From Candidatus Omnitrophota bacterium (GTDB lineage: Bacteria; Omnitrophota; Gorgyraeia; Zapsychrales; JANLHA01): 64,000 nucleotides of DNA. The stretch lies in the NCBI GenBank assembly GCA_022711395.1, contig JAKLFA010000002.1:195864-259863 (forward strand). The letters are read 5' to 3'. Numbering within the stretch: position 1 is the first letter of the stretch; every line of letters starts with the position of its first letter. This document shows, piece by piece, positions 39,962 to 55,216 of the stretch. Both the position numbers and the translations under genes were made by a program. A model generated the notes under the pieces. It was not told the origin of the DNA, searched no databases, and was given only the letters and a program-made list of their open reading frames with translations.

Positions 39962-39963
39962 CT

Positions 39964-40229: not shown

Positions 40230-40720
40230 CACCTGTTTGCCTGTGAAATTTCGCATCTTTTTACTGCCCTCATATATGAACACGCAAAAAATTCGAAAGT
40301 GTAACACCCCTAAAGCATATATTCCGGTTTTTCCTGTAAAGTGTCGGATCATTACCCTCCCACAGGTGATTACAGGAAAATTCCGAAAGTGTCGAAGCCT
40401 TCAAGGCGTATATACAACTTTTTTTGCCAAACTGTCCCACCCCTAAGGCGTATATTCCGGATTTTTCCGGAAAGTGTCGGAACTTTCTTTCCCCTCATAG
40501 GTGATTACGCAAAATTTTCAAAAGTGTCGAAGCTTTTGGCCAACTTTTTTGCCCTCCCATAGGTGATTACAGGAAAATTCCGAAAGTGTCGGGGCTCTCT
40601 ACCATAGTTATTACGTTTTTAGGGTCAAAATTTCGCACCCTTACCGTAGTTATATGTATTCCGGGCCAAGATTTCGCACCCCTCAGCTATGAACACGCAC
40701 TATTTTTTAAAGTGTCGAAG
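40230..40720. repeat. dense non-coding iteron array (putative replication origin/operator region)
   Basis: Seven AAAGTGTCG(R) cores embedded in two alternating ~42-bp repeat types (CTAARGCRTATATTCCGGnTTTTyCnGnAAAGTGTCGGA and CCCAYAGGTGATTACrsrAAAwTTyCrAAAGTGTCGrrGC). Also TATGAACACGCA twice and ATTTCGCACCC three times. No ORF. Confidence 0.6.
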
Positions 40721-40721
40721 C

Positions 40722-40781
40722 CCAAAAATAAAAAAGCCACTTCCGGCCAATTGACTGGAAATGGCTTTTCCCGCACAGGCG
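40722..40781 (-). terminator. strong rho-independent terminator (minus strand)
   Basis: Minus-strand RNA AAAAGCCAUUUCC-loop-GGAAGUGGCUUUU (13-bp stem, one G-U) followed by UUUUUUAUUUUU. Confidence 0.65.
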
Positions 40782-40818
40782 GAACAGTGATCAGCTGTCC
40801 CGTAAGTCTATTTTTATT

Positions 40819-41030
40819 TTATAACAGCGCCAATCTTTCTCAAGATGGTCGTTACCAAAATATGGAATAAATCGCGCTTACGATTCCATCATATGACAAC
40901 GCCAATCTTTCTCAAGGGGGTCATTACTACAAAATAGCAAATCGCCCTCTCACGCTTTCATCATATAACAGCGCGAATCTTTCTCAAGGGGGTCTTTACT
41001 ACAGAATAGTAATAATTATTTGGGGTGTTT
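40819..41030. repeat. three tandem 72-bp direct repeats, non-coding
   Basis: Period of exactly 72 nt (AATCT anchors at 40832, 40904, 40976); unit is about TATRACArCGCsAATCTTTCTCAAGrkGGTCdTTACyACArAATAGnAA.... It lies between the PD-(D/E)xK gene stop and the terminator. Confidence 0.6.
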
Positions 41031-41142
41031 TGGAGGGCTAAAAACAAAAAATCGCCCAGGAGAGCGACAAATGAACTATTAAGTATTACTTACAAGTTGA
41101 ACTATTAGGAATTACCGAATAGTTCCCACATTCTCATCTATC

Positions 41143-42399: not shown

Positions 42400-42411
42400 T
42401 TGGAACCTGAT

Positions 42412-43125
42412 TTATTCTGTTTCTGCGACGTATGCTTCGTTGTATTTTTCTGCGATCTTGCGCAACAATCTTTTCTTTCCTTTTGCCTTCCCAAGGAATG
42501 ACTCAAAATCAAAAGCTGAACATGCTTTCAGATCTTGTTTCGAAAAATAATTCTTTCTCAATAGACAATCTTCAAAATGCTGATAGTCATAATCCTCTTC
42601 TTGCAATGCTCTCTCAAAAATAGACAACAATACAGTCGACATTCGTTGCTGAATTTCTTCGATATATGACAAGATTTCGTTAATTTTATCGTCGATCTGT
42701 TCTTGCGAATTCAAGTAGACATTACCATTAACGTGAGCACTATCATTGCGAAGCTTGATAATCTCTTTGTATTTGCCGATCCTATCCTGCAATCCGATGA
42801 GCCTTAAAAAACGAATGAATTGAGATTCACCAATAACCCAAAAGCCAAATGGATCGGACACTTTGGTCAGATCGGACTCATGTCGATCAATACAACCAAT
42901 CAAGCACTTTGAGAAATCTTCGTGCCGAACTGTTTTAATCTTCCAAACACAAAAATACGTAAAAAGCATAAACAGCATGTGATACGCAATGAACGCGAAC
43001 TGATATTTTCCGTTTTCATAATTACATTTAAATGAATCCCATAAAAAAAGAAGGTATTCTTGCTCTTTCTCGCTCCGAAAATAGCTTGGCAAATATTCTA
43101 AGATATGTTGGGCGTCATCGATCAC
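42412..43125 (-). CDS. HEPN-like (Rx4H) / DUF4145-like protein, candidate abortive-infection component
   Basis: 237 aa; KLRNDSAHVNG contains an R-x4-H motif as in HEPN/DUF4145 proteins often linked to Type I RM loci. Hydrophobic stretch FAFIAYHMLFMLFTYFCVW; start overlaps the hsdMS stop (ATGA). Confidence 0.5.
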   Translation of the reverse strand: MIDDAQHILEYLPSYFRSEKEQEYLLFLWDSFKCNYENGKYQFAFIAYHMLFMLFTYFCVWKIKTVRHEDFSKCLIGCIDRHESDLTKVSDPFGFWVIGESQFIRFLRLIGLQDRIGKYKEIIKLRNDSAHVNGNVYLNSQEQIDDKINEILSYIEEIQQRMSTVLLSIFERALQEEDYDYQHFEDCLLRKNYFSKQDLKACSAFDFESFLGKAKGKKRLLRKIAEKYNEAYVAETE

Positions 43126-45623
43126 TTTTCACCCCAAATCTTAGAAATACGCTCACAAATTTTTGTTGAATATATGTCTATAATTCTTCGATTCGAATTA
43201 ACAAGCTGTTCCGTTTCATCTAAAAAAGTCACTACTTTTTTTTGCGTATCAATATCGGGAAGTAAAAACTTTAGCTTATAAGCGTCATTACGATTGAGAC
43301 CAGGTACACCAGCTTGAGTATTAACCTTATCGAGCCGCATTGATAGCATTTGATAATAAGCGAATTTCAGATCTAAAGAATCTATCTTGTTGATTTTGAC
43401 ATAAAAAGTGGTATCAATTGGGTATCCTGATTTTTCTGAGTATGTAACAGCACCCGCTGTTCCTTTTCTCCCCACTACAACAAAAGGCCCATCCACTAAA
43501 TATTCATTATGCCAGCCGACTATGCCATTAGACCCAAAAACGGGATATTCACCAGCGATTCTATTTTCCTCTTTAAGTGGCTTCCCGTATTCCAAAGACA
43601 GAACATCTCCTAATTCTACAACTGGCCATTCGGGATCAGAGTCAATACGCGGATTATAATTATCAGTAACCTGACGAGCCCCCGCAACAATCTTTTGATA
43701 ACTACTTAATTCTTCAACTATTTCTTCCTGTACAGTCATCGACGGGAGTGGGATTTTGATTTCTTTGACCTCTAGGCTAATACCTCCGATAATTCCTTTA
43801 ATATACGGCTTCAATTTTTGTTGGAAATCATCCGACCTGATGATTGCATAAAGATATTCCGGAAGGATATTCTGCCGAGCCCTTAATATAAAAACATGTT
43901 CATTTACAGCGGCGGCTTCGTTGCAGTCAAAATATCCAGTCTTTCCAGTTGTTGCGCCATCTTTGACAATTAGAACATCTCCTTTTTTTAGAATACCTTT
44001 CTTCATCGATTGGAAATGTTCATTAGTGACATATTTCATTTTTTCAAACAGGATATCACCATGTTCATTTATCTGCTCGCCCCCGATGCTCGGAATGCCC
44101 GACGAAACCGCGCCTCCTTTTTGTCGTGATCCGCTTTCTATATCAACAACATCTCCTAATTCAACCATCGGCCACTTAACGTTAACATGAGTTTCCTTTA
44201 ACCCATATCGTTCGCCACTCAAGTTGTATGTGCCGCCTTTTGCGATCTTGCTTTTTTCAATTACCTTTATTTTTTGCCATGCGTCATCTTTAAATTTGCC
44301 TTCTGAAATAACGGCCTTCTTGTATTCCATGATTGCGCGATATGCATCCGGCAAGTCATTTTCTTGTATCGGACGCCTCTGCGCGCCAAGATCAAAGCCA
44401 TCGTTTTCGATCTTCACGAATAAAAGATTATCCGTTTTCTTAACAAGCTGTTTGTCGAGCCACAATATGGACGTCTTAACGCCAGAGTATGGATTAAAAA
44501 GTCCAGCTGGAAGAGAGATAACTCCAACCAGATACTCTTCAACAAGCATTTTTCTAAGCTGCCTATAGGCTGTATCGTTTTGAAATATTATTCCTTCTGG
44601 AACAATGATTGCGGCACGCCCCATTGAAGTAAGATGCTCAGCCATATAATCCACAAAAAGCACCTCTGAGCGCTTGGATTGGACAGAAAAACGCTTATGT
44701 GGTTTTATCCCACCTTTAGGCGACATGAATGGAGGGTTTGCGAGAATGACCTCTGCTTTTTCATCCCATTTGTCGTCTCGCGTTAATGTGTCATACTCAT
44801 AAATTTTTGGGTTGCTAAAACCATGGAGATACATATTCACCAAAGACAATCTAACCATATCCGGAGAAATGTCATATCCTGAAATATTATCAACAAGCCG
44901 TTTGCGATCGTCAGAGGTTAATTTTTCCCCACGGTATCCTTTGCCATTAATCGTGATCTCCGAAAGCTTGATATTTTGAAGCTCAAATGGCTTTGGATCA
45001 TTCTTAGGATCATAGTTCTTCGAGTTATGCTTAATAATATATTTGTATGCGGATATCAAAAACCCGCCCGTTCCGCATGCTGGATCCAATATCTTTTCGT
45101 TCTTTTTGGGCTCCAGAATCTCTACCATAAAATCAATGATATTTCGCGGCGTTCTGAATTGCCCGGCCTCGCCTTGACTTCCTAATATCGAAAGCAAATA
45201 TTCAAAAGCATCGCCAAGACGCTCAGAGTGATCGTATTCAAACTCATTAATTTCTTTTAGAAAACTTTTAAGCGTTTCTGGGTCCCGATATGGCAAATAC
45301 GCGTTCTTAAAGATATCCCTAAATAACTGCGGGACATTGGGGTTTTGATTCATATTCTGTATTGCTTCGCCATACAGATTTACAATGTCATAGCCGCTTT
45401 TTTGAGGTGAAAAAACGTTACGCCACGAATAATCTTTAAATTTATCGGTAAAGAATTTTGCCTTACCGCGAGGCAATAGCTCTGCCTGCCTGTCCATGTC
45501 ATCCATAAACTTATAAATTAGGGCAATTGTAATTTGCTCAACTTGAGATTTAGGATCAGGCAATTTACCGACTAAAATGTCTCGCGCAGTATTTATTCGC
45601 CTTTTTGTAATGTCATCTAGCAT
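43122..45623 (-). CDS. hsdMS: Type I restriction-modification HsdM-HsdS fusion (N6-adenine methyltransferase plus two target-recognition domains)
   Basis: 833 aa; methylase motif I LDPACGTGGFL and motif IV NPPF; C-terminal half has two TRD-like repeats (WPMVELGDVVDIESG... and WPVVELGDVLSLEYG...). Confidence 0.8.
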   Translation of the reverse strand: MLDDITKRRINTARDILVGKLPDPKSQVEQITIALIYKFMDDMDRQAELLPRGKAKFFTDKFKDYSWRNVFSPQKSGYDIVNLYGEAIQNMNQNPNVPQLFRDIFKNAYLPYRDPETLKSFLKEINEFEYDHSERLGDAFEYLLSILGSQGEAGQFRTPRNIIDFMVEILEPKKNEKILDPACGTGGFLISAYKYIIKHNSKNYDPKNDPKPFELQNIKLSEITINGKGYRGEKLTSDDRKRLVDNISGYDISPDMVRLSLVNMYLHGFSNPKIYEYDTLTRDDKWDEKAEVILANPPFMSPKGGIKPHKRFSVQSKRSEVLFVDYMAEHLTSMGRAAIIVPEGIIFQNDTAYRQLRKMLVEEYLVGVISLPAGLFNPYSGVKTSILWLDKQLVKKTDNLLFVKIENDGFDLGAQRRPIQENDLPDAYRAIMEYKKAVISEGKFKDDAWQKIKVIEKSKIAKGGTYNLSGERYGLKETHVNVKWPMVELGDVVDIESGSRQKGGAVSSGIPSIGGEQINEHGDILFEKMKYVTNEHFQSMKKGILKKGDVLIVKDGATTGKTGYFDCNEAAAVNEHVFILRARQNILPEYLYAIIRSDDFQQKLKPYIKGIIGGISLEVKEIKIPLPSMTVQEEIVEELSSYQKIVAGARQVTDNYNPRIDSDPEWPVVELGDVLSLEYGKPLKEENRIAGEYPVFGSNGIVGWHNEYLVDGPFVVVGRKGTAGAVTYSEKSGYPIDTTFYVKINKIDSLDLKFAYYQMLSMRLDKVNTQAGVPGLNRNDAYKLKFLLPDIDTQKKVVTFLDETEQLVNSNRRIIDIYSTKICERISKIWGEK

Positions 45624-45637
45624 GATAATCCCCTCTT

Positions 45638-48160
45638 TTAAATAAACGTGTTTAATGGCACGTAATCTTTGACGTATTCAATAACCGGATCCATCCACCC
45701 GTCTAAATCATGCAAATCTTGCATGTTAAAACGCGGATTCGTGGCAAGTGAACTGAATTCACCTGTCTCCATTATCTGCTGGATTTCCTTATCCAAAATA
45801 TATGCCTTCATGAAATGCCCGATAATTGATACAAACTCCGGCTCCGGGTGATATATGGAAATAAATTTCTGAACTTCTTCTTCAAGGAGCTCGTCTTTAG
45901 TCTTAAATTTTTTGATTTTGCCAAAAATCTTTTCAAGGATTTCTTTCAGGCTCAATCTGCGGTCGAGTTTGATAGATTTTCTCAGTTTATCCAGATTGAA
46001 ATAATCCTCGGGCTTATCAAAAACTTTGTCTTTGATATACGCCTCGGCTTCTTCGTACTTTCCCTCATAAATCTTATTCTTAATGTGCTCATCATGGCTT
46101 ACGATTTCCTCGAACTTCTCGAAGAACTTTCTGTCAATTCGCATCCCTTCATAGCCTATGGGCGTCTCATCGATCCCAACAAGCGGATCAGGATTCACGT
46201 TTTCATACTCTCTCGGATTGGGTGGCGGAAAAGGCCCGGGCCCCGTAGTTCCGGGAGTTGTGGGCGGTAACGCAATAACCTCGTCATAGGGATATTTTTC
46301 TTCAAAATATTCACAGTTCGCAAAGAAATCAAACAGCTTAAATCGCTCTTTTTCTTTTTGAACTTCGTCTATGCCCCCGATACCATCTGGCTGTTTATAA
46401 GAAAACGTGTATTTTCGGGTTCCTCGACCTTTCATTTGAATAAAATCGGTGGGCGAGAAAATAGGGCGCATTAAACACAAATTGAGGATATCTTGACAAT
46501 CATATCCTGTGGTCATCATTCCAACCGTTACACACACCCGCGTCTTTGATGAATTATACCCATCCAAGAATTTCGAATTACCGCTAAGGCGGTTATTGGC
46601 GAAATTGATGGCCATTTGTTGAGAACCATCGATATTTGATGTAACCTGTACCGCAAAATCAGAGTTATATTTTTCGGGGAAATATTTATGTGCAAGCTCA
46701 TTTAAAATTTGCGTAATCTTTGAAGCGTGATTTTGGCTTACACAGAAACAAATCGATTTTCCTATTTCATTTGTAAGGGGATCCTTGAGAGCATTGTCCA
46801 AGAATGTCTTACACAGGGACAAATTTGTTTCTTCCGAAAACAGCCTTCGTTCGAAATCTTTTCCGAAAAAGATCTTCTTTTCAGACTCCCCGTCCTCGTT
46901 CTCTATTAATACAGCGTACCCTTCTTCAGAAAGCAACTGGGTTGTAATTTCTGTTCTTGCATCAACCACGATGGGATTGATTAAGTACCCGTCTTTCACT
47001 CCATCTAAAAGGGTATAACGAAAAGTGGGATCGGTATCTTTACATCCGAAAGTCGTATACGTATCTAAGAGCTGGCGCCTTTCCAGCGCCCTTGGGTCAT
47101 GGTGCGCCAGCTGTTGCTCATCAACGTTTCGCAAATAGTTTTTCGGTGTTGCCGTTAATCCTAATTTATAGCCCGTAAAATATTCGAAAACTGCCCGGCT
47201 ATTCCCACCTATTGACCTATGAGCCTCATCAGATATGACAAGATCAAAGTCTGTTGGGCAAAATAAATCCTTGTATTTATTTTTAAATAACAATGACTGA
47301 ACCGTCGAAACTACAATCTCCGCTTTTGTCCAATCATCCTTGTTCTCTTTAAAAATGACACATTTAAAGTCTTTCTTGAGGTAGGCTACAAAATTCTTCC
47401 ATGCTTGATCTTCCAGCTCGAGGCGATCAACCAAAAACAACACCCTTTTTGCGTTACTTGTTCTTAAAAACAACTTAATCACGGCCGCCGAAACAAGCGT
47501 TTTTCCTGTCCCAGTAGCCATCTCAAATAAAAATCTGTCTTTCCCTTGAGAAACCGCTTCTTGTATCGAATGTATAGCCTTTAACTGGTACTTTCTCAAA
47601 AAACGAAGACCGTTATCTTCAACAAAAGATTTTCTTTGGCTGGGATCGACCCACCGTGGATCTTTTGAATAATTCTGGTTTTGAGTTAAAACTATATAAT
47701 CCTCATCAATCTGTTCTCGAACGATTGCGTCGGGATTAGGCTTAAAAGATTTCTTATGCGTTATAGAGGCCGCTGTAGGGAATGTTGTTATAACATACGG
47801 ATTGCCCGATTCTATGTCCCAGAAGTAATGAAGATTTCCATTTGAAAGAATAATAAAACGAACATTTAAAGAATTGGCATACTGCCGAGCTTGCTCTTTA
47901 CCATCCAAAGGATTTTTGCTTTCACTCTTAGCTTCAAGCACACAAAGAGGAAAAGAATTTTTATCCATCAAAAGATAATCAGCGTACCCTTTGCTGGCTT
48001 TTTCAAAGTCCTCCCCCAGCTCATTAATGGCGATTTCCGTGATTGGCGTATTTACCTCCAGCCGAATGTTTGCTTTACCATTCTGATCGTCAAAAAAACG
48101 CCAACCGGAATCTTCTAGTAACTTATTGATCTTGATTCGTGCTTTAGCTTCTTTCGCCAT
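45638..48160 (-). CDS. hsdR: Type I restriction enzyme R subunit (HsdR family, short EcoEI-like form)
   Basis: 840 aa; N-terminal PD-(D/E)xK nuclease (D...CVLEAKSE), SF2 helicase motif I MATGTGKT and motif II ISDEAH, C-terminal helical domain. Confidence 0.8.
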   Translation of the reverse strand: MAKEAKARIKINKLLEDSGWRFFDDQNGKANIRLEVNTPITEIAINELGEDFEKASKGYADYLLMDKNSFPLCVLEAKSESKNPLDGKEQARQYANSLNVRFIILSNGNLHYFWDIESGNPYVITTFPTAASITHKKSFKPNPDAIVREQIDEDYIVLTQNQNYSKDPRWVDPSQRKSFVEDNGLRFLRKYQLKAIHSIQEAVSQGKDRFLFEMATGTGKTLVSAAVIKLFLRTSNAKRVLFLVDRLELEDQAWKNFVAYLKKDFKCVIFKENKDDWTKAEIVVSTVQSLLFKNKYKDLFCPTDFDLVISDEAHRSIGGNSRAVFEYFTGYKLGLTATPKNYLRNVDEQQLAHHDPRALERRQLLDTYTTFGCKDTDPTFRYTLLDGVKDGYLINPIVVDARTEITTQLLSEEGYAVLIENEDGESEKKIFFGKDFERRLFSEETNLSLCKTFLDNALKDPLTNEIGKSICFCVSQNHASKITQILNELAHKYFPEKYNSDFAVQVTSNIDGSQQMAINFANNRLSGNSKFLDGYNSSKTRVCVTVGMMTTGYDCQDILNLCLMRPIFSPTDFIQMKGRGTRKYTFSYKQPDGIGGIDEVQKEKERFKLFDFFANCEYFEEKYPYDEVIALPPTTPGTTGPGPFPPPNPREYENVNPDPLVGIDETPIGYEGMRIDRKFFEKFEEIVSHDEHIKNKIYEGKYEEAEAYIKDKVFDKPEDYFNLDKLRKSIKLDRRLSLKEILEKIFGKIKKFKTKDELLEEEVQKFISIYHPEPEFVSIIGHFMKAYILDKEIQQIMETGEFSSLATNPRFNMQDLHDLDGWMDPVIEYVKDYVPLNTFI

Positions 48161-48177: not shown

Positions 48178-48885
48178 TTATTTGTTTAAAATCCCTATGT
48201 AATCCTCAAAACTATAATAATTACTGCCGCCAACTATTATGTGATCCAGTAGCCTTACTTGCATGGTCTTGCCAGCTTCGAACAATTGTTTTGTGAAGTC
48301 CTTATCAGGTGTGCTTGGTGTTGTGTCGCCAGATGGATGGTTATGAACGCAGACAATCGACTTGGCGAATTTCTGTAATGCGGCATGAATGATCTCCCGG
48401 ACAATCGGGAACGCCTGATCAACAGTACCGACCGAAGCGTCTGAAATATCAATGATGCGGTTCTTGTTATCAAGATAAATAACCTTGAACACCTCTGTTT
48501 TAAGGTCGCGGAGCTGGGGCAAAACAATATCCACAACGTCCTTGGCAGAGGCGATCTTCTGCTTCCCGGTGGACACATCGTCCTGTCGATAGCGCCGCCC
48601 GATTTCAAGCGCGGCCTGAATATGGGCGATCTTGGCCCCGCCCAAACCCTTGAATTCCTTCCAGTCGCGGGCGTCGGTGTGGGCCATACTCCTGAATGAA
48701 CCGAACTTTGCGAGGATCTTGCGGGAAAGGTCGATGGCGCTTGTGCCTTTGGAGCCAGTGCGAAGCAGAATGGCTAGAAGCTCTGAATTACTCAAAGCTC
48801 CCGCGCCCTTCTTGAGGAGTTTCTCTCTCGGCCTGTCATCCTCCGGCCAAGTCTTTATGCCTGTAGCTTTTCTTTCCTTCACCAT
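48178..48885 (-). CDS. radC: RadC-like JAB-domain protein
   Basis: 235 aa; LSNSELLAILLRTG HhH N-terminus and JAMM-like HNHPSGDTTPSTPD motif. Confidence 0.8.
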   Translation of the reverse strand: MVKERKATGIKTWPEDDRPREKLLKKGAGALSNSELLAILLRTGSKGTSAIDLSRKILAKFGSFRSMAHTDARDWKEFKGLGGAKIAHIQAALEIGRRYRQDDVSTGKQKIASAKDVVDIVLPQLRDLKTEVFKVIYLDNKNRIIDISDASVGTVDQAFPIVREIIHAALQKFAKSIVCVHNHPSGDTTPSTPDKDFTKQLFEAGKTMQVRLLDHIIVGGSNYYSFEDYIGILNK

Positions 48886-48912
48886 TCTTCTCTTCTCTGT
48901 TCTTCACTATTT

Positions 48913-48964
48913 CTGCAACCAGTGGTTGCAGATTTTGAGCCAATTCTTGCACCAATGGTGCAAG
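48913..48964. promoter_or_regulatory. pair of 8-3-8 inverted repeats upstream of radC (candidate operator); a third exact copy at 50152-50172
   Basis: CTGCAACC-agt-GGTTGCAG (48913-48931) and CTTGCACC-aat-GGTGCAAG (48946-48964). The 21-mer TTCTTGCACCAATGGTGCAAG recurs exactly inside the DUF1016 CDS. Confidence 0.45.
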
Positions 48965-48977
48965 AAACACATTACTT

Positions 48978-49433
48978 CTAAGGGCGCTTATTATCGCGTT
49001 TATTATCACGTTTACCTGACTTGTTATCAGGTTTGGACGCTTGCCCTGTCTTATACTCCAACATTTCAAGCATGATCTTCCGGCGTTTCCGATCAGGCAC
49101 CAGATTTGAATGCTCTCCAAGATGCCGATACTGCCGACCGGTACGGCCATGGCTTCCACCGATGTTATAGATACTGCACCAAACGCTCCCATCGCAACTT
49201 GATAAGGTGCATTCTTTAAATATGGGGCAATGACGCGTTTCATATCGCCTTACAGCGTCCAAAAGCGCAGGGGTCGATAGCGGAATATTCGTCCTCGTGG
49301 AAGCATCGCGCATTGCCAAAGCAATCTCGTGATCGTATTCAGGGCACGTTAAGATAGTCTGCGCCGCTTCAGGCATGCCGACCTTTTTGAAAAATTTCGC
49401 TATGAGATTCTGATGTTTAATCGTGTATTCCAT
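48978..49433 (-). CDS. hypothetical protein (Cys-containing; basic Lys/Arg-rich C-terminal tail)
   Basis: 151-aa ORF; no family recognised. Confidence 0.35.
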   Translation of the reverse strand: MEYTIKHQNLIAKFFKKVGMPEAAQTILTCPEYDHEIALAMRDASTRTNIPLSTPALLDAVRRYETRHCPIFKECTLSSCDGSVWCSIYNIGGSHGRTGRQYRHLGEHSNLVPDRKRRKIMLEMLEYKTGQASKPDNKSGKRDNKRDNKRP

Positions 49434-49446
49434 ATAACCTGCTGAA

Positions 49447-50469
49447 TCATATTTGATCTACCAATTCCTGAATCTGTTCCGGTGACGGTAATTGTTTCTT
49501 TAATTCTTTAGGCAATTTCGTTGTTATTTTATATTGCGCTACCGCGATCGGCTTGTTGCTTTCTTTTAGCGCGTATTCCACAATCGTCCGTTTCTTCTCC
49601 TTGCAAACGATAATCCCTATGGATGGATTTTCATATTTTTCTTTCATCTCGGCATCCAAGGCGGCAAGATAAAATTGCATCTTGCCAACATACTCCGGTT
49701 TAAACTCGCCGATCTTAAGCTCTATAGCCACCAGACAGCGTAATCTGCGATGATATAGCAGTATGTCGATAAAATATTCATTGCCCTCAATCTCAAGCCG
49801 GTACTGATTGCCCATGAAGGCAAACGCGCCACCCATTTCGATAAGGAAACGATTAACCTTAGCGACAATCGCGCGTTCAAGCTCCAACTCGCTATGCTCC
49901 TCTCCTAATTCGAGAAAGCCAAAAGAATACTCGTCTTTAACAGCCAGTTTTGCCTGCTTTTCTATCTTGGCCGGTAGGGTTTTGCCAAAATTAGTCTGGT
50001 TAACCATCGTTTTTTCGTACGTCTTATTTTCAACCTGATGGACAAGCACCTCTTTTGTCCAACCCATGCGTTTTGTCATGCGAATATAAAATTCACGCTC
50101 AAGGTCATCCTTACACTTCTCCATAACAACAATATTATGTGACCAGCTAATTTCTTGCACCAATGGTGCAAGTTTTGTGCTTTTCTCATAGCGAAGATAA
50201 AATTTACGCATTCTCCAGAGATTATCCTTTGAATATCCGGATACTCCCGGGAATTCCTTCTGTAAATCCTGCGCAAGGTTTTCAACCACAGATTTTCCCC
50301 AATTATGTCTCCCTTGCCTATCAACAATCTTTTTCCCGAGATCCCAATAAAGGCTTATAAGTACGCTGTTAACATTTTTCAAAGCATCATACTGAGCGGA
50401 TCTAATCCGCTCTTTAACTTCTCGCAAGAAATCCGAGTAATGTTTGTTATGAACCAAGCTCTGTGTCAT
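49447..50469 (-). CDS. YhcG-like PDDEXK nuclease (DUF1016 family)
   Basis: About 340 aa from MTQSLVHNKHYSDFLREVKERIRSAQYDALKNVN...LYWDLGKKI, which matches the DUF1016/YhcG N-terminal pattern. C-terminal restriction-endonuclease-like fold (IDILLYH...LVAIELKIGEFKPEYVGKMQFY). Confidence 0.7.
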   Translation of the reverse strand: MTQSLVHNKHYSDFLREVKERIRSAQYDALKNVNSVLISLYWDLGKKIVDRQGRHNWGKSVVENLAQDLQKEFPGVSGYSKDNLWRMRKFYLRYEKSTKLAPLVQEISWSHNIVVMEKCKDDLEREFYIRMTKRMGWTKEVLVHQVENKTYEKTMVNQTNFGKTLPAKIEKQAKLAVKDEYSFGFLELGEEHSELELERAIVAKVNRFLIEMGGAFAFMGNQYRLEIEGNEYFIDILLYHRRLRCLVAIELKIGEFKPEYVGKMQFYLAALDAEMKEKYENPSIGIIVCKEKKRTIVEYALKESNKPIAVAQYKITTKLPKELKKQLPSPEQIQELVDQI

Positions 50470-50485
50470 CTTTCTCCTCCAAAAT

Positions 50486-50671
50486 CTATTTTTTGGCCTT
50501 TGAGCGCTTCGTCTTGTATTCCTCAATCAACTCGCGCATGATCGCCGCGATGGAGGCTTCCTTGTCCTGCTTTTGACGCTCAAGAGCCTCCTGCTTTAAA
50601 AAGAAATAAAGGTCGTCCGGAATATCCAGCGTCGTCCGGTGCATTTTTTCATTGTTTCTCGTTACTCGCAT
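50486..50671 (-). CDS. ribbon-helix-helix (CopG/antitoxin-like) small DNA-binding protein
   Basis: 61 aa; TTLDIPDDLYFFLKQEA beta-strand/helix pattern of RHH proteins. Confidence 0.45.
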   Translation of the reverse strand: MRVTRNNEKMHRTTLDIPDDLYFFLKQEALERQKQDKEASIAAIMRELIEEYKTKRSKAKK

Positions 50672-50684
50672 GGTATTAACCTCG

Positions 50685-51431
50685 CTATTTAATGACTTTC
50701 CAGTTATTGAGGAAATATGTTACCTCGTGTTCCCGCCTGCCGAGATAGAGCTTATCAGCGACGAACTTCAAGGTCATACGATATGAATTCCCCTTGTTGA
50801 TCTCAAGAATCGCCCTCTCGTGCAGTTTCTGCTCTAAGACAAGATATGGGAATATCACAAAATCGGTTTTACTCTCGTCACGCAAAACACAGACGTAAAA
50901 AATATTGCTTGAATTAAACCGCTCAAACGATGTTCGTCGCACATCAAAAACGTAGGTATTATAACTATTGAGATTAGCGGTTTTAACCTGAATCTCAAAA
51001 CGTTTGTTATCCTTTATCGCCACGATATCAATGCCGGTATCCACGCTCATGATGCTGGCATTAAAACCCCTGAACAGAAGCTCACTGCAGACACGGAATT
51101 CTCCGCCTTTGCCGATAAAACCCGTCTCGACGGAATAGGTGTCCCCCTGCGCGGGAAGCGGAGCCGATTTTACTGGCACAGGTTCTTTATAATCCGGATT
51201 GATCGAAAAAGTGGCAGGCGATACTCTTTTGAATATTGACTTATCCCCGTAACGCTTTATATCCACAACGATTTGAGCGTTCATGGTCGCTTCGGGTGTC
51301 GCGCCTTGCGTCTCAAATAATCCTTCCTCTAACGCCTTGCGGGTGATCTCCCGATAATGAAGCGGTTCCTTGAACTTCTTGAGGATAGTAATCGCGGCCT
51401 GCTTAAAGGTATTCATGCCATATCCTTTCAA
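50685..51431 (-). CDS. HARE-HTH (Mrr-N-like winged helix) plus PD-(D/E)xK restriction-endonuclease-like protein
   Basis: 248 aa; N-terminal FKQAAITILKKFKEPLHYREITRKALEEGL... winged HTH; C-terminal GIDIVAIKDNKRFEIQVKT (D ... ExK). Confidence 0.55.
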   Translation of the reverse strand: MKGYGMNTFKQAAITILKKFKEPLHYREITRKALEEGLFETQGATPEATMNAQIVVDIKRYGDKSIFKRVSPATFSINPDYKEPVPVKSAPLPAQGDTYSVETGFIGKGGEFRVCSELLFRGFNASIMSVDTGIDIVAIKDNKRFEIQVKTANLNSYNTYVFDVRRTSFERFNSSNIFYVCVLRDESKTDFVIFPYLVLEQKLHERAILEINKGNSYRMTLKFVADKLYLGRREHEVTYFLNNWKVIK

Positions 51432-51517
51432 TTGGCTTTAATTATGGCATTATAGCATTTTAAGTTTTGAAAGGAAATGATTTTTTACGCTGATGCGGGT
51501 TTTGTTTTAAGGCGGGA

Positions 51518-51790
51518 TTAGAGGACGGATTCTTGAATCTTGCCGGTCGTGGCATCCACGATTCGGAAATGGGTCTTGCCGGTGCGGTCTTTCCACTGCT
51601 CTTCGATATTTAGGGTCCAGTCACCCAGAGGCATGACTTTCTGGATCTCCCGCAGGCGAAGCTTACCGGCCGGGACCGCACTCAAGAGATCGCCCTCGGT
51701 TGAGATGTTTTCCACATAAACTTCCTCACCAGCCAGCCGGACGCTGATATAGCGGGTTTTCTTAACCGATTGCTCGATAACTTTTGCCAT
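51518..51790 (-). CDS. hypothetical protein
   Basis: 90-aa ORF, first gene downstream of the palindrome-containing intergenic region. Confidence 0.35.
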   Translation of the reverse strand: MAKVIEQSVKKTRYISVRLAGEEVYVENISTEGDLLSAVPAGKLRLREIQKVMPLGDWTLNIEEQWKDRTGKTHFRIVDATTGKIQESVL

Positions 51791-51994
51791 ACGCCTGCCT
51801 CCCTTTTGGGGTCAAGTAGGCCATAGGGTCGAGCTATTGGCAAGGAATTTAATTGGGGTTGCAAGCCTAACCCCCTCATGTCAATAATATGTCACAACCT
51901 GATTTATTACAGATAGTTAGAAAGAATTTGGGAAGGCTGTTTTGTCAGAAATAATATATACTTTTTGTGACAAGATTAAATGTCTACTGGATGG

Positions 51995-52037
51995 AAATGT
52001 CCACTATTTAGTGGACATTTTGAAAAAGTGGACATTT
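51995..52037. promoter_or_regulatory. 26-bp perfect palindrome plus third half-site (candidate operator)
   Basis: AAATGTCCACTA-TT-TAGTGGACATTT (12-2-12, 51995-52020), then AAAAGTGGACATTT at 52024-52037. Lies in a 360-bp AT-rich intergenic region that also has a GGGGTT...AACCCC hairpin and TTGTCA/TGACAA elements. Confidence 0.45.
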
Positions 52038-52150
52038 ATGACCGCAAATCACTCCCCCACAATCGCAACGGCAAGCTCAGACATAGTGTTACGATAAATA
52101 GGCCAACCGCCATCCGAAGGTTTTAAGATAAACTTTGTTTGACATATTTT

Positions 52151-52849
52151 TCAGGCGTCTTTTTGGCAAAGATAAACAACGAAATTTGATGAAACAGATT
52201 TTTTTGATTTGATCGCGAAGCCGGCTCTGGTGAGCAAACCATCCATGATCCAATCATAGGTGCTAAACTCCTGCTTAACATGCCCTAAAGCTCCGGGGCG
52301 GACCTGCTCATTAAATGAATGAATAAATCTTTCAAAACACTGGTCAGGGGACTCGCCTTCCCTGAGGCTAAAGACCACATCCCTTAAAATAAACTTACCT
52401 CCGGTTTTAAGAACTCTTGAAATATTCTGCAAGGCGACAAGTTTCCAGGTGTCCGGCAGATGATGAAGCGCAGCGCCTGAAACCACAGCGTCGAATGACT
52501 CTGATGGAAAATCCGATGTCAGGAAGCCCGCGTGCTGCAGGATGATCGGGGATAAATTTTCTTCAGATATTTTTTTCTGGACATACTCCAGCATGATTTT
52601 TGACACATCCACAGCGCTGACCTTTAATCCAAAAGAAGCGGCGGCCCGTGAAAAGCGGCCCGTTCCACAGCCGATTTCTAAAACGGCCGATCCCTTTGGT
52701 AATTGAAGCATGGATAGCATTTCCTGATTTTCAAGATCAACATCACGAAAACTTTTCATGCGCTGGTCATACAGCTCAACTTCTTTCAGATCAGAATAAT
52801 CAGTCCCGATTTGGCGCATCTCGTCCCATTGCCATTCTGTTTTATGCAT
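52151..52849 (-). CDS. class I SAM-dependent methyltransferase
   Basis: About 232 aa from MHKTEWQW (GGAGG RBS); LEIGCGTGRFS motif I. The track's longer ORF overlaps the beta-lactamase gene and is rejected. Confidence 0.7.
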   Translation of the reverse strand: MHKTEWQWDEMRQIGTDYSDLKEVELYDQRMKSFRDVDLENQEMLSMLQLPKGSAVLEIGCGTGRFSRAAASFGLKVSAVDVSKIMLEYVQKKISEENLSPIILQHAGFLTSDFPSESFDAVVSGAALHHLPDTWKLVALQNISRVLKTGGKFILRDVVFSLREGESPDQCFERFIHSFNEQVRPGALGHVKQEFSTYDWIMDGLLTRAGFAIKSKKSVSSNFVVYLCQKDA

Positions 52850-52902
52850 CAGTTCCTCCCCCTTCAATCTGCATTCCCATATATTTTTCAAGAAATTCAA
52901 CT

Positions 52903-53694
52903 TTAGAGAAGCCCTTGCGACCGTAAAACATTTTCGACGATTGTTCTTGCGGTCCTGCCCGAGGGATTTTCCCCGCCGGTTATATTGCAGGCAAAGACAT
53001 ACGTCGTTCCTTCTGTTTCCAGAAACCCGACAAACCATCCTAAATTCCATTTTCCATCCGGCCCTGTGCCGGATCCGGTCTTGCCGTAAAGCGTTCCTTT
53101 GCCGGTCGTCTCTGTCTTCATAACATCGCGCAGTGTCGCGATATTCTTTTTCGAGAACGGAAGCTTGTCATCCAAAAGACTATTTAAAAGAGTGACCTGT
53201 TCATCCGCGCTGATCATGATCGGGACGCTGTCCGGCCTCGGAAGCCAGAAGGTATCGATCCCGGCTGAAATGTCCCGTGAACCATACCCGATCTTTTCAA
53301 TAAAGTCCTTCATCCGGTCTTCACCGATCTGCCGCGCCAGGATCTGATATGCAGGCACGGCCGACACCCGAAACGCCTCACGAAGCGTTAAATCCTGATT
53401 CCATCCTTCTATAGCTCGCGTCACCCCATCCCAGGTATACCACGGTTTGTCAGGCCCACTTATGAACTCCAGTTCAAGCCCGATGAGGGTATTGTAAATT
53501 TTGAATGTCGAACAGGGCGCAAAGCGTTGGCTGCTGCGCTCCGGATCAATGTTAATTGTCTCTCCGGTAACCCGGTTGTAGATCACCAGAGCTGTGTCAT
53601 ACCCCTGCAAAAGAGACTCGTCGATTTCTTGGGCGAAGGAAACAGCGGTGATCACAAGAAAGCTTAGAGAAAATACCAGCGTATTGAGTTTCAT
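52903..53694 (-). CDS. class D (OXA-family) beta-lactamase
   Basis: 263 aa with signal peptide; STFK (Ser-x-x-Lys), SAV, KTG and WFVG motifs in the canonical order and spacing of class D enzymes. Confidence 0.75.
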   Translation of the reverse strand: MKLNTLVFSLSFLVITAVSFAQEIDESLLQGYDTALVIYNRVTGETINIDPERSSQRFAPCSTFKIYNTLIGLELEFISGPDKPWYTWDGVTRAIEGWNQDLTLREAFRVSAVPAYQILARQIGEDRMKDFIEKIGYGSRDISAGIDTFWLPRPDSVPIMISADEQVTLLNSLLDDKLPFSKKNIATLRDVMKTETTGKGTLYGKTGSGTGPDGKWNLGWFVGFLETEGTTYVFACNITGGENPSGRTARTIVENVLRSQGLL

Positions 53695-53754
53695 GGAAGG
53701 TCCTTATTATTTCCCCGAAAGCGTTCGCTGAGTCCAAGAACGCGCACGGCTGCA

Positions 53755-54405
53755 CTATCGTTTTAAGCGGTCCTTTTTTCCGTATTCCTTCCCGGTCGAG
53801 CCGACAAACCATTCTTCCGGAAGAGATTCATCTTCCCACGGCGCCCGGGCAATATAATCACTCATGGTTCCATGCGCGCTGGGTCCGTAGTGAAAACCAT
53901 ACGTGAAATGAACTTCGTTCAATGTGCCGGGAATGGTGATGCGGCCTTGAGCGCTCTTGGATATCGAATCGATCCCGTTAAAGTTGGTCGCCTCCTCAAT
54001 AAATATTTTTGTCCCCGCGGGCAGCTGATGAACGCGGTAGGGCCCGCCGTAATTTTTGCGGTTGTCCCCTGCCCAGATCTCGGATTCGCGAAGACAGTAG
54101 ATCCGCTTGTGATAATCAGAAGCGGGGTACAGTTTTTGTCCCTGCTGATAACCATTTACAACGGTTTTCGCAGGCTTGGTCCACATCCGGTCATCATAAA
54201 CCAGATCGGTCGGCTGATCGTTTTCCCAGAAACTGTAAAGCGTCCCTTCATGATTTGCAATATACTCCTCCAAAACACAGGAACGCTTGAGCGTGACGTC
54301 TTGTCCGACATACCCGGAAAACGGCTTAAAGCGATTGAGCGATGTCGTGCATCCAGCCAGGAATACAACAAGCACCGCGATCCTGAGGATCGGGAGTTTT
54401 TTCAT
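53755..54405 (-). CDS. hypothetical lipoprotein
   Basis: About 216 aa from MKKLPILRIAVLVVFLAGC (lipobox LAGC); no family recognised. Confidence 0.5.
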   Translation of the reverse strand: MKKLPILRIAVLVVFLAGCTTSLNRFKPFSGYVGQDVTLKRSCVLEEYIANHEGTLYSFWENDQPTDLVYDDRMWTKPAKTVVNGYQQGQKLYPASDYHKRIYCLRESEIWAGDNRKNYGGPYRVHQLPAGTKIFIEEATNFNGIDSISKSAQGRITIPGTLNEVHFTYGFHYGPSAHGTMSDYIARAPWEDESLPEEWFVGSTGKEYGKKDRLKR

Positions 54406-54454
54406 GGTCTTTGCCTTCCGAAATATTTTCGATTCGAAGTGGCCGTTTCTTTTG

Positions 54455-55216
54455 TTATTTTTCCGCAATCACGAGCATTTCAAAATCTTCGGTCGTCAGT
54501 TTGTCGTTGCGCGAATAGGCGCCAAGTTTTGAGCCGAAGATCTCGATCTTTTTAAATCCAAGCGTCTTTAAAAGCCACGTGATCTCACTCGGCACATAGT
54601 AGCGCTCGTTGCAGTTCAATTCCTTTTTATTTCCAGCGTCATCTTCGAACACGACGGTGTTGTGATCGCGGAACGTCATCAGATCGAAAGAACAATTTTT
54701 ACATGCGGAATTGCCTTCTTTGGCGTTGGACTCATAAAATTCTTTGACTGAATGGAACAGCGGGAACAACCCGTTCAACGTTGTGAAAATGAATTTACCT
54801 TTATCTTTCAAGGCCCTGGTCGCGCTTTTGAGGATCTCGAAATTCATCTCATCGGTTTCCATCAAGGAAAAGCCGCCTTCGCAGAGCATGATCGCCAGAT
54901 CGAATTCGCCGTTAAAAGGAAGGCTCCGCGCGTCATGCCTCTGAAAATCGACCGCCACCCCTGTTTCAGTGGCTTTTTCTTTTGCCCGGGCAAGCTGTGA
55001 TTCGGATAGATCAACGCCGGTCACTTTATACCCTCTTTTCGACAGCTCGATCGAATGCCGGCCCGTTCCGCAACCGATGTCGAGGATCTTGAGGGATCTG
55101 TCATGGCCGATCTCAGCTTCAATAAAATCACATTCCCCGATCGTCCCCTGAACAAAACACTCGTTATCATACTTCCGCGCGTAATTTTCAAATAAGGACT
55201 CATACCATTGTTTCAT
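54455..55216 (-). CDS. class I SAM-dependent methyltransferase
   Basis: 253 aa; ILDIGCGTGRHS motif I and VDLSESQLARA post-I region. Confidence 0.7.
   Translation of the reverse strand: MKQWYESLFENYARKYDNECFVQGTIGECDFIEAEIGHDRSLKILDIGCGTGRHSIELSKRGYKVTGVDLSESQLARAKEKATETGVAVDFQRHDARSLPFNGEFDLAIMLCEGGFSLMETDEMNFEILKSATRALKDKGKFIFTTLNGLFPLFHSVKEFYESNAKEGNSACKNCSFDLMTFRDHNTVVFEDDAGNKKELNCNERYYVPSEITWLLKTLGFKKIEIFGSKLGAYSRNDKLTTEDFEMLVIAEK

Follow-up and report, generated by a model that had tools for sequence, protein, structure and literature searches.

Exchangeable defence-type genes stacked beside a Type I restriction system on an 18-kb integrative element of an uncultured Omnitrophota bacterium

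From comparative genomics, Aravind and Iyer (2012, as cited in PMC4738411 and PMC10853773) predicted fusions of HARE-HTH with restriction endonuclease domains, and such HARE-HTH-nuclease proteins, in restriction-modification (R-M) and Dnd contexts, are predicted to discriminate modified DNA (PMC4738411, PMC10853773). No HARE-HTH-REase member has been characterised, and a 2024 survey of winged-helix endonucleases lists the reader role of HARE-HTH as unproven (PMC11037411). DUF1016 genes are enriched beside R-M genes of Types I and IIG (PMC9881135); the sole published representative of PDC-S02 that was tested gave no protection against T4, T5 and T7 (bioRxiv 10.1101/2024.09.26.614923), and PDC-S02 is still only a defence candidate. 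The biochemical function of the RadC family is still not established (PMC3239186, PMC5512222). Here we describe a locus in which members of these families occur together, in a 64,000-nucleotide stretch of DNA (the window) from an uncultured Candidatus Omnitrophota bacterium.

The locus lies on an 18.04-kb integrative element that has inserted in a miaB-like gene, at its 5′ end. The element is bordered by an 11-nt direct repeat, ACCTTCGGATG, which occurs exactly twice in the window, both times on the minus strand, against 0.06 copies expected. The attL core (52111–52121) marks the left end and sits in the displaced original 5′ end of the miaB-like gene, of which a remnant peptide, MSNKVYLKTFGW, is left at about 52145–52089; sibling elements whose host flanks differ also become homologous from attL onwards. 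The attR core (34079–34089) falls within the last recombinase codons and, in the restored miaB-like ORF (34191–32788), within the codons for TFGC. The backbone (34071–41124, minus strand) comprises iteron-like repeats (40600–41124), a DUF5659 gene (39964–40194), an NrS-1-type primase-polymerase (37586–39961), small genes and a large serine recombinase (34071–35777), and is 85% identical across 6.5 kb to that of a sibling element, L046, which abuts the same miaB-like gene. Just inside attL and upstream of p90, an operator-like array (51977–52038, minus strand) holds four 11-nt sites, AAATGTC(C/T)ACT, two direct and two inverted. Every sibling of the 18-kb element (L001–L006, L010, L011, L037–L039) has these four sites at identical spacing, and they were found in no other locus among 138 loci.

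Positions 48178–51790 are the attL-proximal part of a co-directional cargo array of about 10.4 kb at the attL end of the element. The earlier note had placed six co-directional genes here, following hsdR; all six ORFs are present at the coordinates it gave, on the minus strand, but they lie transcriptionally upstream of hsdR, in the order p90, HARE nuclease, RHH-like gene, DUF1016, p151 and RadC, with gaps down to hsdR of 101, 13, 16, 13, 92 and 17 nt. Two start codons had to be moved. The HARE gene starts at ATG 51416, giving a 243-aa protein that is recorded in exactly this form in 22 contigs and in a TTG-extended form in none, and DUF1016 starts at ATG 50469, giving 340 aa in agreement with public gene calls and with a profile alignment from residue 20, so that its apparent overlap with the 61-aa gene disappears. 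Co-directional packing is tight throughout, and the last array gene is followed by a terminator-like hairpin (41051–41068). An extended −10-like motif, TGCTATAAT (51449–51457, minus strand), can be read some 35 nt before the HARE start codon; it is kept as TG(C/A)TATAAT in phage L040 and in the HARE-less alleles L041 and L042, where it directly precedes the RHH-like gene. We infer that the cargo is co-transcribed from this conserved promoter, both promoter and operon structure being putative readings of sequence motifs. Against diverged homologues the tested genes gave dN/dS values of 0.03–0.16, which indicates purifying selection and therefore real coding genes. Along the array GC3 is a mosaic (0.45 in DUF1016 versus 0.65 in the RHH-like gene), with the hsd genes at 0.37–0.41, below the element backbone.

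The six genes are not one machine, the reading that the earlier note had implied, since sibling loci reassort every component. An identical HARE protein stands with p90 and the RHH-like gene before DUF1016, DUF4062-HATPase_c_4 or Fic. HARE-less alleles read p90-RHH-DUF1016 fragment (L041) or promoter-RHH-RadC-HsdR-RhuM-HsdM-HsdS (L042–45), and one sibling carries p90, an RHH paralogue, NYN, p157, HsdM, HsdS, HsdR, RadC and a second HARE-nuclease subfamily (33% identity). The p90-HARE-RHH block is also found in phage L040, between replication genes and terminase. We consider it likely that the array is made up of stacked, independently exchangeable anti-invader modules on an integrative element rather than of one multi-subunit system, and its cargo genes would then act in defence. 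The arrangement itself is an ordinary stacking of defence-type genes by a restriction system at an element end.

The 90-aa and 151-aa proteins, listed previously as unknowns, indeed match no family, yet both are conserved. p90 (51518–51790, minus strand) has no match in Pfam, PHROG or PDB, and its 90 homologous clusters come mostly from Omnitrophota. In L034 it lies behind a primase-polymerase block, in L036 at one end of a prophage, past the tail genes, and in the siblings L037–39 it is the first gene inside attL. Its dN/dS is 0.12–0.16; p90 is thus backbone of Omnitrophota integrative elements and prophages and not, as had been assumed, a member of the defence cargo. The Omnitrophota-only family of p151 (48978–49433, minus strand; dN/dS 0.16) forms 72 clusters and has four cysteines, C69, C75, C80 and C86, that are invariant in the alignment. 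Its AF2 model is all-alpha (pLDDT 79.5) and has no Foldseek or PDB match. In L037 and L053 the gene stands upstream of RadC/Type I genes, and in L049 it is part of an AbiE/DUF1016 island.

Downstream, the Type I R-M system (43122–48160, minus strand) consists of HsdR (840 aa, 45638–48160) and a fused HsdM-HsdS (833 aa, 43122–45623), both matched by Pfam and PADLOC. Two further cargo genes follow on the same strand (41143–43125): p237, which overlaps hsdMS by 4 nt and is HEPN-like (motif R-NDSA-H; HEPN_RiboL-PSP E 0.0013, below cut-off), and p418, which has no family match and in which an N-terminal PD...ESK motif can be read. The gene next to hsdR (48178–48885, minus strand) encodes a full-length RadC/YicR protein, confirming the JAB-domain assignment: UPF0758_N and JAB are both present, the NCBIfam equivalog scores 237 bits against a cut-off of 180, and the JAMM motif E...HxH...S..D is invariant. 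Five divergent systems have RadC directly beside Type I genes. In an unbiased metagenome sample it adjoins R-M genes in only 5 of 75 informative loci, so that RadC may be no functional partner but a housekeeping-type gene that was captured.

The 243-aa nuclease (50685–51416, minus strand) has a winged-helix reader at residues 1–76 (HARE-HTH, PF05066, E 3.4e-20), a disordered linker at 80–102 and a nuclease domain similar to Hjc and I-Ssp6803I at 103–243. Although PDDEXK_5 scored below cut-off (E 0.0078), the AlphaFold2 model (pLDDT 82.5) confirmed the nuclease fold, with Foldseek matches to I-Ssp6803I (the best, E 8e-5), Hjc/Hje and the SPARDA nuclease at E 8e-5 to 1e-3, and residues E106, D126, D130 and Q143-x-K145 are invariant across 34 homologues. 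Against phage L040 the gene has a dN/dS of 0.03. Together with the YhcG_C match of the DUF1016 protein (E 1.4e-61), this bears out two different PD-(D/E)xK proteins, one of them fused to HARE-HTH; the winged helix is of the HARE type, and the nuclease domain is not Mrr-like: a domain search matched neither Mrr_N nor Mrr_cat, and the closest folds are those of Hjc and a homing endonuclease. More than 700 distant homologues of about 245 aa usually stand at the end of R-M operons, and at least 11 of 18 are the last gene of a co-directional R-M operon, with the ATG 1–8 nt past the upstream stop, in agreement with the published prediction (PMC4738411, PMC10853773). Some sources call homologues 'Holliday junction resolvase'.

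These closest folds of the nuclease domain, junction resolvases and a homing endonuclease, would fit non-defence roles equally well. We therefore considered whether the HARE gene is a selfish homing-type cassette, which cuts cassette-less alleles, is copied in during repair and colonises R-M operons and mobile-element slots. Besides the match to I-Ssp6803I, itself a PD-(D/E)xK homing endonuclease, several observations favour this. Presence or absence of the gene is ORF-precise between conserved flanks in sibling elements. A 97–100% identical tract (51492–50593), in elements otherwise about 10% diverged, covers the HARE ORF with about 75 nt upstream and 90 nt downstream; this 0.9-kb tract resembles co-conversion, as the adjoining p90 is 7–13% diverged (dS 0.05 for HARE versus 0.22 for p90). 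The protein is always better conserved than the adjacent R-M genes (e.g., 89% versus 48–61%) and retains 45–60% identity across bacterial phyla and archaea. However, the 'empty' sites keep the last HARE codons (AAATAG), and L041 also a start-like remnant, and they therefore look like deletions rather than virgin targets. The ORF sits in tight translational packing behind R-M genes, with no conserved flanking target visible across loci; the second subfamily, found with RadC and Type I R-M in the sibling, points to a functional theme; and viral contigs seldom carry the family, an IMG/VR scan yielding 5 loci. Homing is accordingly an explanation to which we give some weight but which we regard as unlikely.

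The variable slot lies between the RHH-like gene as 5′ anchor and RadC as 3′ anchor. DNA homology to siblings runs up to the RHH-like gene's stop codon and ends precisely there; L002, L003 and L009 retain a radC fragment of about 50 nt at the edge of the slot. Here the slot is filled by p151 and the DUF1016 gene (49447–50469, minus strand), which encodes a PD-(D/E)xK nuclease with DUF1016_N (E 3e-46) and YhcG_C domains, a motif ID...ELK read in the sequence, and matches to PHROG 22762 (E 1.6e-91) and, over its full length, to the PADLOC candidate PDC-S02 (E 2.4e-146). Defence-type cargo adjoining a Type I system, as proposed earlier, is therefore present, although of the array genes PADLOC recognised DUF1016 and the Type I genes and had no matching model for the HARE nuclease, RadC, p90, p151 or the RHH-like protein.

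The 61-aa protein (50486–50671, minus strand) can be called RHH-like with caution: RHH_1 scores below threshold (E 0.015) and no significant PDB match was obtained, so the earlier assignment holds weakly. The gene is under purifying selection (dN/dS 0.03–0.04) and, at 83–98% identity, precedes DUF1016, DUF4062-HATPase_c_4, Fic, a Fic_N/TerS chimera with terminase, or RadC-hsdR. It could form a toxin-antitoxin or abortive-infection pair with the next gene, with DUF1016 as the toxin here and the cluster as a set of such Abi modules. The antitoxin-first order holds, the folds of the downstream genes (Fic, NYN, PD-(D/E)xK, HATPase_c_4) are classic ones for toxins or effectors, and overlaps of 4 nt join the gene to Fic (L003), NYN (L037) and the DUF1016 fragment (L041). 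This reading is nonetheless quite improbable, since the same protein, 92–98% identical, stands before structurally unrelated partners including RadC-hsdR and terminase, the 9-residue basic tail that follows its core of about 45 residues is too short for a toxin-binding domain, and L041 retains the gene with only a DUF1016 fragment.

It is very improbable that the cargo serves the DNA metabolism of the element, with the Hjc-like resolvase clearing branched replication or packaging intermediates and RadC and the YhcG nuclease processing DNA ends in replication, excision and repair: the HARE nuclease does resemble archaeal Holliday junction resolvases in fold, some homologues being so named, its block lies between replication genes and terminase in phage L040, RadC is annotated as DNA repair and the element replicates with its own primase-polymerase, but the HARE gene and DUF1016 are dispensable, as siblings with the same backbone do without one or the other, most HARE homologues are in R-M operons of cellular genomes with element replication genes absent nearby, DUF1016 is statistically linked to R-M loci (PMC9881135), and composition marks these genes as imported cargo.

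Under the preferred reading of stacked anti-invader modules, the HARE-HTH N-terminus would bind DNA, possibly reading a modified base, and the Hjc-like domain behind the flexible linker would cut; family-wide, the gene is an accessory that closes R-M operons, and the activity of the nuclease may depend on DNA modification. The RHH-like protein, at the head of the array, probably regulates the cargo, most likely by repressing or timing the transcription of the genes that follow it. The RHH-like gene and RadC flank a slot whose single effector gene is exchanged, here DUF1016/YhcG with p151, and RadC would be coupled to the Type I system, followed by the HEPN-like and then the PD-(D/E)xK-like gene. 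Both the RadC–Type I coupling and the homing-like behaviour of the HARE cassette are leads worth following.

P4-like satellites are small integrative elements that encode an integrase together with a primase-type protein for replication, and they carry defence hotspots between conserved anchor genes. The Omnitrophota element shares the integrase, the primase-type protein, the lack of structural genes and the variable defence block between anchors; it differs in using a serine recombinase and an NrS-1-type primase-polymerase, in inserting in a miaB-like gene and in that its sole phage link is the shared p90-HARE-RHH block. R-M controller (C) proteins are small helix-turn-helix proteins encoded at the head of restriction operons. 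The 61-aa protein is likewise a small putative DNA-binding protein heading a restriction operon on a mobile element, a position from which it may time the expression of the nuclease, but it is at best RHH-like. RadC shares the equivalog, the HhH-type N-domain with JAB and the intact metal site with the RadC/YicR family, whereas here it is mobile-element cargo tightly joined to Type I R-M. The DUF1016 protein has the domain architecture and R-M neighbourhood of PDC-S02; in siblings its slot is occupied by Fic or DUF4062-HATPase_c_4. With Mrr and other Type IV winged-helix nucleases (e.g., PD-(D/E)xK-wH enzymes, PMC11037411), the HARE nuclease has in common a small two-domain layout of winged-helix-type reader and D...(Q/E)xK nuclease beside Type I R-M. 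Its reader is HARE-HTH, however, and Hjc and I-Ssp6803I are the closest folds to its nuclease core. Mrr has a comparable neighbourhood in E. coli, mrr-hsdRMS. The Aravind and Iyer fusions, as presented in the papers that cite them, also combine an N-terminal HARE-HTH with a PD-(D/E)xK (REase-fold) domain and lie at or beside R-M or DNA-modification operons, often immediately downstream, whereas the gene described here stands upstream of its R-M system, behind its own putative promoter and before the RHH-like gene, and behaves as a cassette open to gain and loss.

Within 48178-51790, reading of the sequence gave six minus-strand ORFs of 90, 248, 61, 359, 151 and 235 aa, and the earlier claim of six co-directional genes was thus confirmed with two corrected starts. 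The gene for the HARE nuclease, a HARE-HTH plus PD-(D/E)xK protein (50685-51416), begins at ATG 51416 and encodes 243 aa, a form recorded in exact sequence on 22 contigs, while the TTG-extended form was found on none. The DUF1016 gene begins at ATG 50469 (340 aa), in agreement with public gene calls and with the onset of the PADLOC profile alignment, and its apparent overlap with the 61-aa gene thereby disappears. The genes had been described as following hsdR; they do adjoin it and share its direction, but because they lie on the minus strand they are upstream of it in transcription, in the order p90 (90 aa, 51518-51790), HARE nuclease, RHH-like gene (61 aa, 50486-50671), DUF1016, p151 (151 aa, 48978-49433) and RadC. 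From p90 through hsdR the gaps are 101, 13, 16, 13, 92 and 17 nt, and the close packing goes on through hsdR (840 aa), a fused hsdM-S gene (43122-45623, 833 aa, N6_Mtase followed by two Methylase_S target-recognition domains) and the genes of a 237-aa and a 418-aa protein (p237 and p418, 41143-43125), ending at a terminator-like hairpin at 41068-41051. Against diverged homologues, dN/dS was 0.03 for the HARE nuclease, 0.03-0.04 for the RHH-like protein, 0.09 for RadC and 0.12-0.16 for p90, which marks the ORFs as genuine genes rather than chance ORFs. A sigma-70 consensus scan returned 29 matches where shuffles gave 27.7, i.e., no excess, and no promoter claim was built on it; no Rfam family was found in 30-56 kb and no tRNA gene in the 64-kb window.

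The cluster forms the attL-proximal cargo of an 18.04-kb element in this Candidatus Omnitrophota metagenome-assembled genome, since a direct repeat and sibling elements fix the borders. The 64-kb window has only two copies of the 11-mer ACCTTCGGATG, each on the minus strand (attL core 52111-52121 and attR core 34079-34089; 0.06 expected by chance), and the repeat sits in codons for T-F-G-C that are conserved in a miaB/rimO-like radical-SAM gene. The miaB-like ORF (34191-32788) is intact because the element supplies a replacement 5' end, and the restored frame overlaps the 3' end of the recombinase gene by 121 nt; the displaced original 5' end (MSNKVYLKTFGW) is left at the other border (52089-52145). 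The last recombinase codons and the stop codon are host DNA past the att core. Homology to siblings with other host flanks begins at the 11-nt repeat, and a sibling on a 74-kb contig (L046), whose backbone is 85% identical, adjoins the same host gene. Downstream of the cargo come iteron-like repeats, a DUF5659 gene, an NrS-1-type primase-polymerase and a large serine recombinase with Resolvase, Recombinase and Zn_ribbon_recom domains. The tandem repeats (40600-41124; a 72-nt unit x 2.7, a 41-nt unit x 2 and a 26-nt unit x 2) fill a 948-nt non-coding gap by the DUF5659 and primase-polymerase genes, carry a TTGAGA-16-TATGAT promoter-like motif in each 72-nt unit, and are probably the replication origin of the element. 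The recombinase domains, the end repeats and the recurrence of the same ends in independent genomes are those of large-serine-recombinase integrative elements, and we consider the element a previously undescribed but conventional integrative-element type.

The motif AAATGTC(C/T)ACT occurs four times at 51977-52038 on the minus strand, twice direct and twice inverted, and the copies, whose starts are 17, 15 and 17 nt apart, form a palindromic array. Every sibling of the 18-kb element keeps this arrangement perfectly, and the related phage and other loci lack it. As an att site the array was rejected, since it is placed ~75-140 nt inward of the border and the true direct repeat, of 11 nt, is elsewhere. 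In another Omnitrophota genome, an island (L049-L052, ~2389-8409) directly upstream of a miaB-like gene encodes DUF1016, an HTH protein, AbiEi/AbiEii, a p151 homologue and HATPase_c_3, contains one copy of the att core, and could be a relative of the element that has decayed. On the host side of the attL border, the stretch 52151-54468, leading to the gene of a 253-aa SAM methyltransferase, holds ~1.9 kb of extra DNA relative to the syntenic loci L002 and L003. Encoded there are a methyltransferase of 232 aa, an unknown of 216/237 aa and a 263-aa class-D beta-lactamase/BlaR-like protein, in which a Transpeptidase domain and an STFK motif are present.

The HARE-HTH domain (PF05066) was detected at residues 8-76 of the HARE nuclease with an E value of 3.4e-20 (72.6 bits, cut-off 25.9), and a match to the Pfam family PDDEXK_5 remained sub-threshold. 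Across an alignment of 34 homologues the mean column identity is 76%, with E106, D126, D130 and Q143-V-K145 invariant. The AlphaFold2 model (pLDDT 82.5) consists of an N-terminal winged helix, a disordered linker (80-102) and a C-terminal alpha/beta nuclease core. A PDB sequence search gave nothing significant. Foldseek placed the nuclease domain closest to the PD-(D/E)xK homing endonuclease I-Ssp6803I, the SPARDA nuclease and the archaeal junction resolvases Hjc/Hje, with PvuII and DpnI as remoter matches. Most likely, the HARE-HTH would bind DNA and the tethered Hjc-like domain would cut, which would add a second nuclease specificity to the accompanying R-M system; the enzyme may need a modified base.

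Database searching recovered more than 700 homologues of ~245 aa in Patescibacteria (CPR), Gammaproteobacteria, Flavobacteriaceae, Firestonebacteria and archaea, 45-62% identical to the window protein. Of 18 distant genome loci, at least 11 have the HARE gene as the last of a co-directional R-M operon, be it Type I, D12 methylase pairs with an AlwI-type enzyme, or Eco57I-like methylases with a helicase; at the distant loci its ATG follows the stop codon upstream by 1-8 nt, and the flanks showed no conserved sequence. Its conservation is always above that of the R-M neighbours (e.g., 89% versus 48-61%). The protein had no match among INPHARED phages or PLSDB plasmids, and the family is rare in IMG/VR. 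The ~245-aa family has so far been read as modification-sensing restriction enzymes of R-M systems; instead, or in addition, it could represent new free-standing homing-type endonuclease cassettes that enter R-M operons and the cargo slots of mobile elements by gene conversion, in archaea and across bacterial phyla. We consider this improbable. In two HARE-less alleles (L041 and L042-45), the promoter and the RHH-like gene are kept and 38 or 12 nt stand in place of the 735-nt HARE gene, an ORF-sized presence/absence between conserved flanks as expected of free-standing homing endonucleases; however, these 'empty' alleles retain the last HARE codons and therefore look like deletions. The gain and loss at ORF precision and a homing endonuclease as the top fold match lend homing real support, and so does, as an indirect hint of biased inheritance, a 97-100% identical tract (51492-50593) that spans the HARE ORF and both of its flanks while the p90 genes of the same elements are 7-13% diverged (dS 0.05 for HARE versus 0.22 for p90). 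Against it, a second subfamily of HARE nucleases is likewise found with RadC and Type I genes.

Returning to defence modules, the earlier note had by implication taken the six genes for one assembly, and this did not hold, as every component is reassorted among sibling loci. An identical HARE protein stands after p90 and before the RHH-like gene in three contexts, followed downstream by DUF1016 (window), by DUF4062-HATPase_c_4 with a Type III methylase, or by Fic and then RadC and HsdM; DNA homology across these contexts runs from 52136 to the RHH-like stop codon at 50487, or ends within ~20 nt of it. Of the HARE-less alleles, L041 has the RHH-like gene right after p90 and before a DUF1016 fragment, and L042-45 (a 2.15-Mb contig among them) have it directly ahead of RadC-HsdR-RhuM-HsdM-HsdS, with a promoter-like TG(C/A)TATAAT motif conserved in both. 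A sibling 18-kb element carries p90, an RHH paralogue (~40% identical), NYN, a p151 homologue, HsdM, HsdS, HsdR, RadC and a HARE nuclease of the other subfamily (33% identical). At two further loci, p90 follows the primase-polymerase block of another element and precedes unrelated cargo (L034), or lies at a prophage end past the tail genes (L036). In an IMG/VR viral contig (L040, UViG 3300001095_000096), p90, HARE (91% identical) and the RHH-like gene are located between phage replication genes and the terminase. The ORF that follows there (10921-11451) joins the N-terminus of a Fic protein to the C-terminus of a small terminase in one chimera, residues 21-102 matching a Fic PHROG that is also matched by the Fic protein of L003 and residues 96-168 a small-terminase PHROG, which points to the fusion of a slot gene with that of the terminase through a deletion.

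A conserved p90-HARE-RHH trio was considered, given a 1.65-kb block 91-93% identical in three contexts, and was rejected: p90 occurs without the other two (L034, L036 and L037), the RHH-like gene without HARE or p90 (L041-45), and HARE with neither of them in the 18 distant loci. GC3 is 0.58-0.65 in p90, the RHH-like gene, RadC, the primase-polymerase and the recombinase, 0.53 in HARE, 0.45 in DUF1016 and 0.37-0.41 in the R-M genes, a mosaic that agrees with a variable slot as read from composition. The 'assembly' is a mosaic of known or predicted module kinds, and the array would represent stacked, independently exchangeable defence modules on the element. The defence interpretation was thus borne out in part: the cargo is of predicted defence kinds, stands beside a Type I R-M system and includes a PDC-S02 match, but it is not one system.

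The 61-aa protein had been called an RHH protein. The gene is real and the product has the beta-alpha-alpha residue pattern of RHH proteins, but the RHH_1 match is sub-threshold (E 0.015, 15.7 bits, cut-off 20.5) and the PDB search returned only a weak hit to AvtR (E 0.31). At 92-98% identity, the protein recurs ahead of DUF1016, DUF4062-HATPase_c_4, Fic or RadC-hsdR. This small protein most likely acts as a repressor or timer of the downstream nucleases, as it stands directly behind the conserved promoter-like motif, remains near-invariant (dN/dS 0.03) while the downstream partner changes, and has only a 9-residue basic tail past the fold core. For the same three reasons an antitoxin role is less likely, and no co-variation with one cognate toxin, as in a Type II toxin-antitoxin pair, was seen among the sibling loci; we rate a toxin-antitoxin pair below homing. 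A housekeeping role in DNA metabolism is likewise a weaker reading than homing.

RadC is, as predicted, a JAB-domain protein, of the full-length YicR type with UPF0758_N and RadC JAB domains (Pfam), and scored 237.5 bits against the NCBIfam equivalog NF000642 (cut-off 180), the only NCBIfam match among the cargo proteins. Its JAMM metal site is intact, with E164, H181, H183, S191 and D194 invariant in the alignment. Where the slot ends downstream in L002 (12735-12780), L003 (12266-12312) and L009 (2875-2917), a ~50-nt fragment of window-type radC could be seen only by eye or blastn. This intergenic segment of ~45 nt is 81% identical to the interior of the window radC (48602-48556) and translates to FRRCRQQDVVATGKHK where RadC has GRRYRQDDVSTGKQK; tblastn for radC protein remnants at the slot edge returned none. 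The segment is what remains of a replaced radC, and its survival at this edge makes RadC, with the RHH-like gene, one of the two anchors of the variable slot. Five divergent systems (window, L042, L046, L003 and L053) have RadC joined to Type I genes, and between these systems identity falls to 35-38% for RadC and 23-28% for HsdR. In an unbiased sample of RadC relatives the link is present in 5 of 75 informative loci, and in 3 of the 14 closest, and is therefore recurrent yet not general. The function of RadC has been unclear for decades (PMC3239186, PMC5512222); as an independent lead, it may be a functional accessory of Type I R-M systems, and one could speculate that it controls or clears HsdR on the resident chromosome upon entry of the element into a new host.

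Two different PD-(D/E)xK proteins had been claimed for the cluster, and the DUF1016 protein is the second, next to the HARE nuclease identified by model and Foldseek. Its DUF1016/YhcG identity is secured by DUF1016_N and YhcG_C domains (E 3e-46 and 1.4e-61) and by a full-length match to the PADLOC PDC-S02 model PDLC04831 (E 2.4e-146, residues 20-357 in the 359-aa numbering); nothing significant came from a PDB sequence search. With the motif ID...ELK, it is a PD-(D/E)xK nuclease of the 'R-M-embedded' class. The sole published test of a PDC-S02 representative, unrelated to that of the window, was negative against the three coliphages T4, T5 and T7 (bioRxiv 10.1101/2024.09.26.614923). The 90- and 151-aa proteins keep their standing as unknowns under purifying selection, with no match in Pfam, NCBIfam, PHROG or the other libraries searched and nothing significant in a PDB sequence search. 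The p151 family comprises 72 clusters, exclusively from Omnitrophota except for one bin labelled Elusimicrobia, and shares four invariant cysteines (C-x5-C-x4-C-x5-C); its predicted structure is confident and all-helical, and Foldseek found nothing similar in the PDB. An alternative 135-aa ORF (48836-49243), which one pipeline calls instead of p151, was set aside in view of these clusters and of the dN/dS of 0.16 for p151. At the end of the R-M operon, p237 and p418 are candidate effectors: p237 has a HEPN-type R-x4-H motif (RNDSAH) and a weak HEPN_RiboL-PSP match, and p418 an N-terminal LPDAW...LLIESK motif typical of PD-(D/E)xK nucleases, with no family match in profile libraries and no significant result in a PDB sequence search.

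As a whole, the element is a further example of defence genes stacked in a mobile-element slot, from a phylum that is little studied. The leads it offers are the reader specificity of the HARE-HTH, the possible homing of its cassette and the coupling of RadC to Type I systems, the recurrence of which turns into a concrete hypothesis for the role of RadC. What occupies the slot between the RHH-like gene and RadC can serve as a ready-made set of effector candidates, namely DUF1016, Fic, DUF4062-HATPase_c_4, NYN and p151. With 243 aa, extreme conservation and strong purifying selection, the HARE nuclease is a handy model for what HARE-HTH domains read, a question that also bears on the eukaryotic ASXL proteins, whose ligand is disputed.

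Type IV restriction enzymes adjoin Type I systems in E. coli. The HARE nuclease differs from the Mrr-type enzymes of this kind in lacking the Mrr_N winged helix and Mrr_cat, neither of which was matched in Pfam at E <= 0.01, and it matched no PADLOC model, mREase_IV included; of the proposed Mrr-N/HARE winged helix joined to a PD-(D/E)xK domain, the HARE-HTH and the nuclease fold stood and the Mrr part did not. Fusions of HARE-HTH to restriction-endonuclease folds are already described by published comparative genomics, which puts them in N6-adenine R-M systems and right after Dnd modification genes and proposes that they tell modified DNA apart (PMC4738411, PMC10853773). In a 2024 experimental survey of winged-helix endonucleases, the reader role of the HARE-HTH still counts as untested (PMC11037411). 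The window protein resembles these fusions in three respects: an N-terminal HARE-HTH, a C-terminal PD-(D/E)xK fold with an intact E...D...(E/Q)xK motif, as judged by model and alignment, and a gene that shares a co-directional array with a Type I R-M system.
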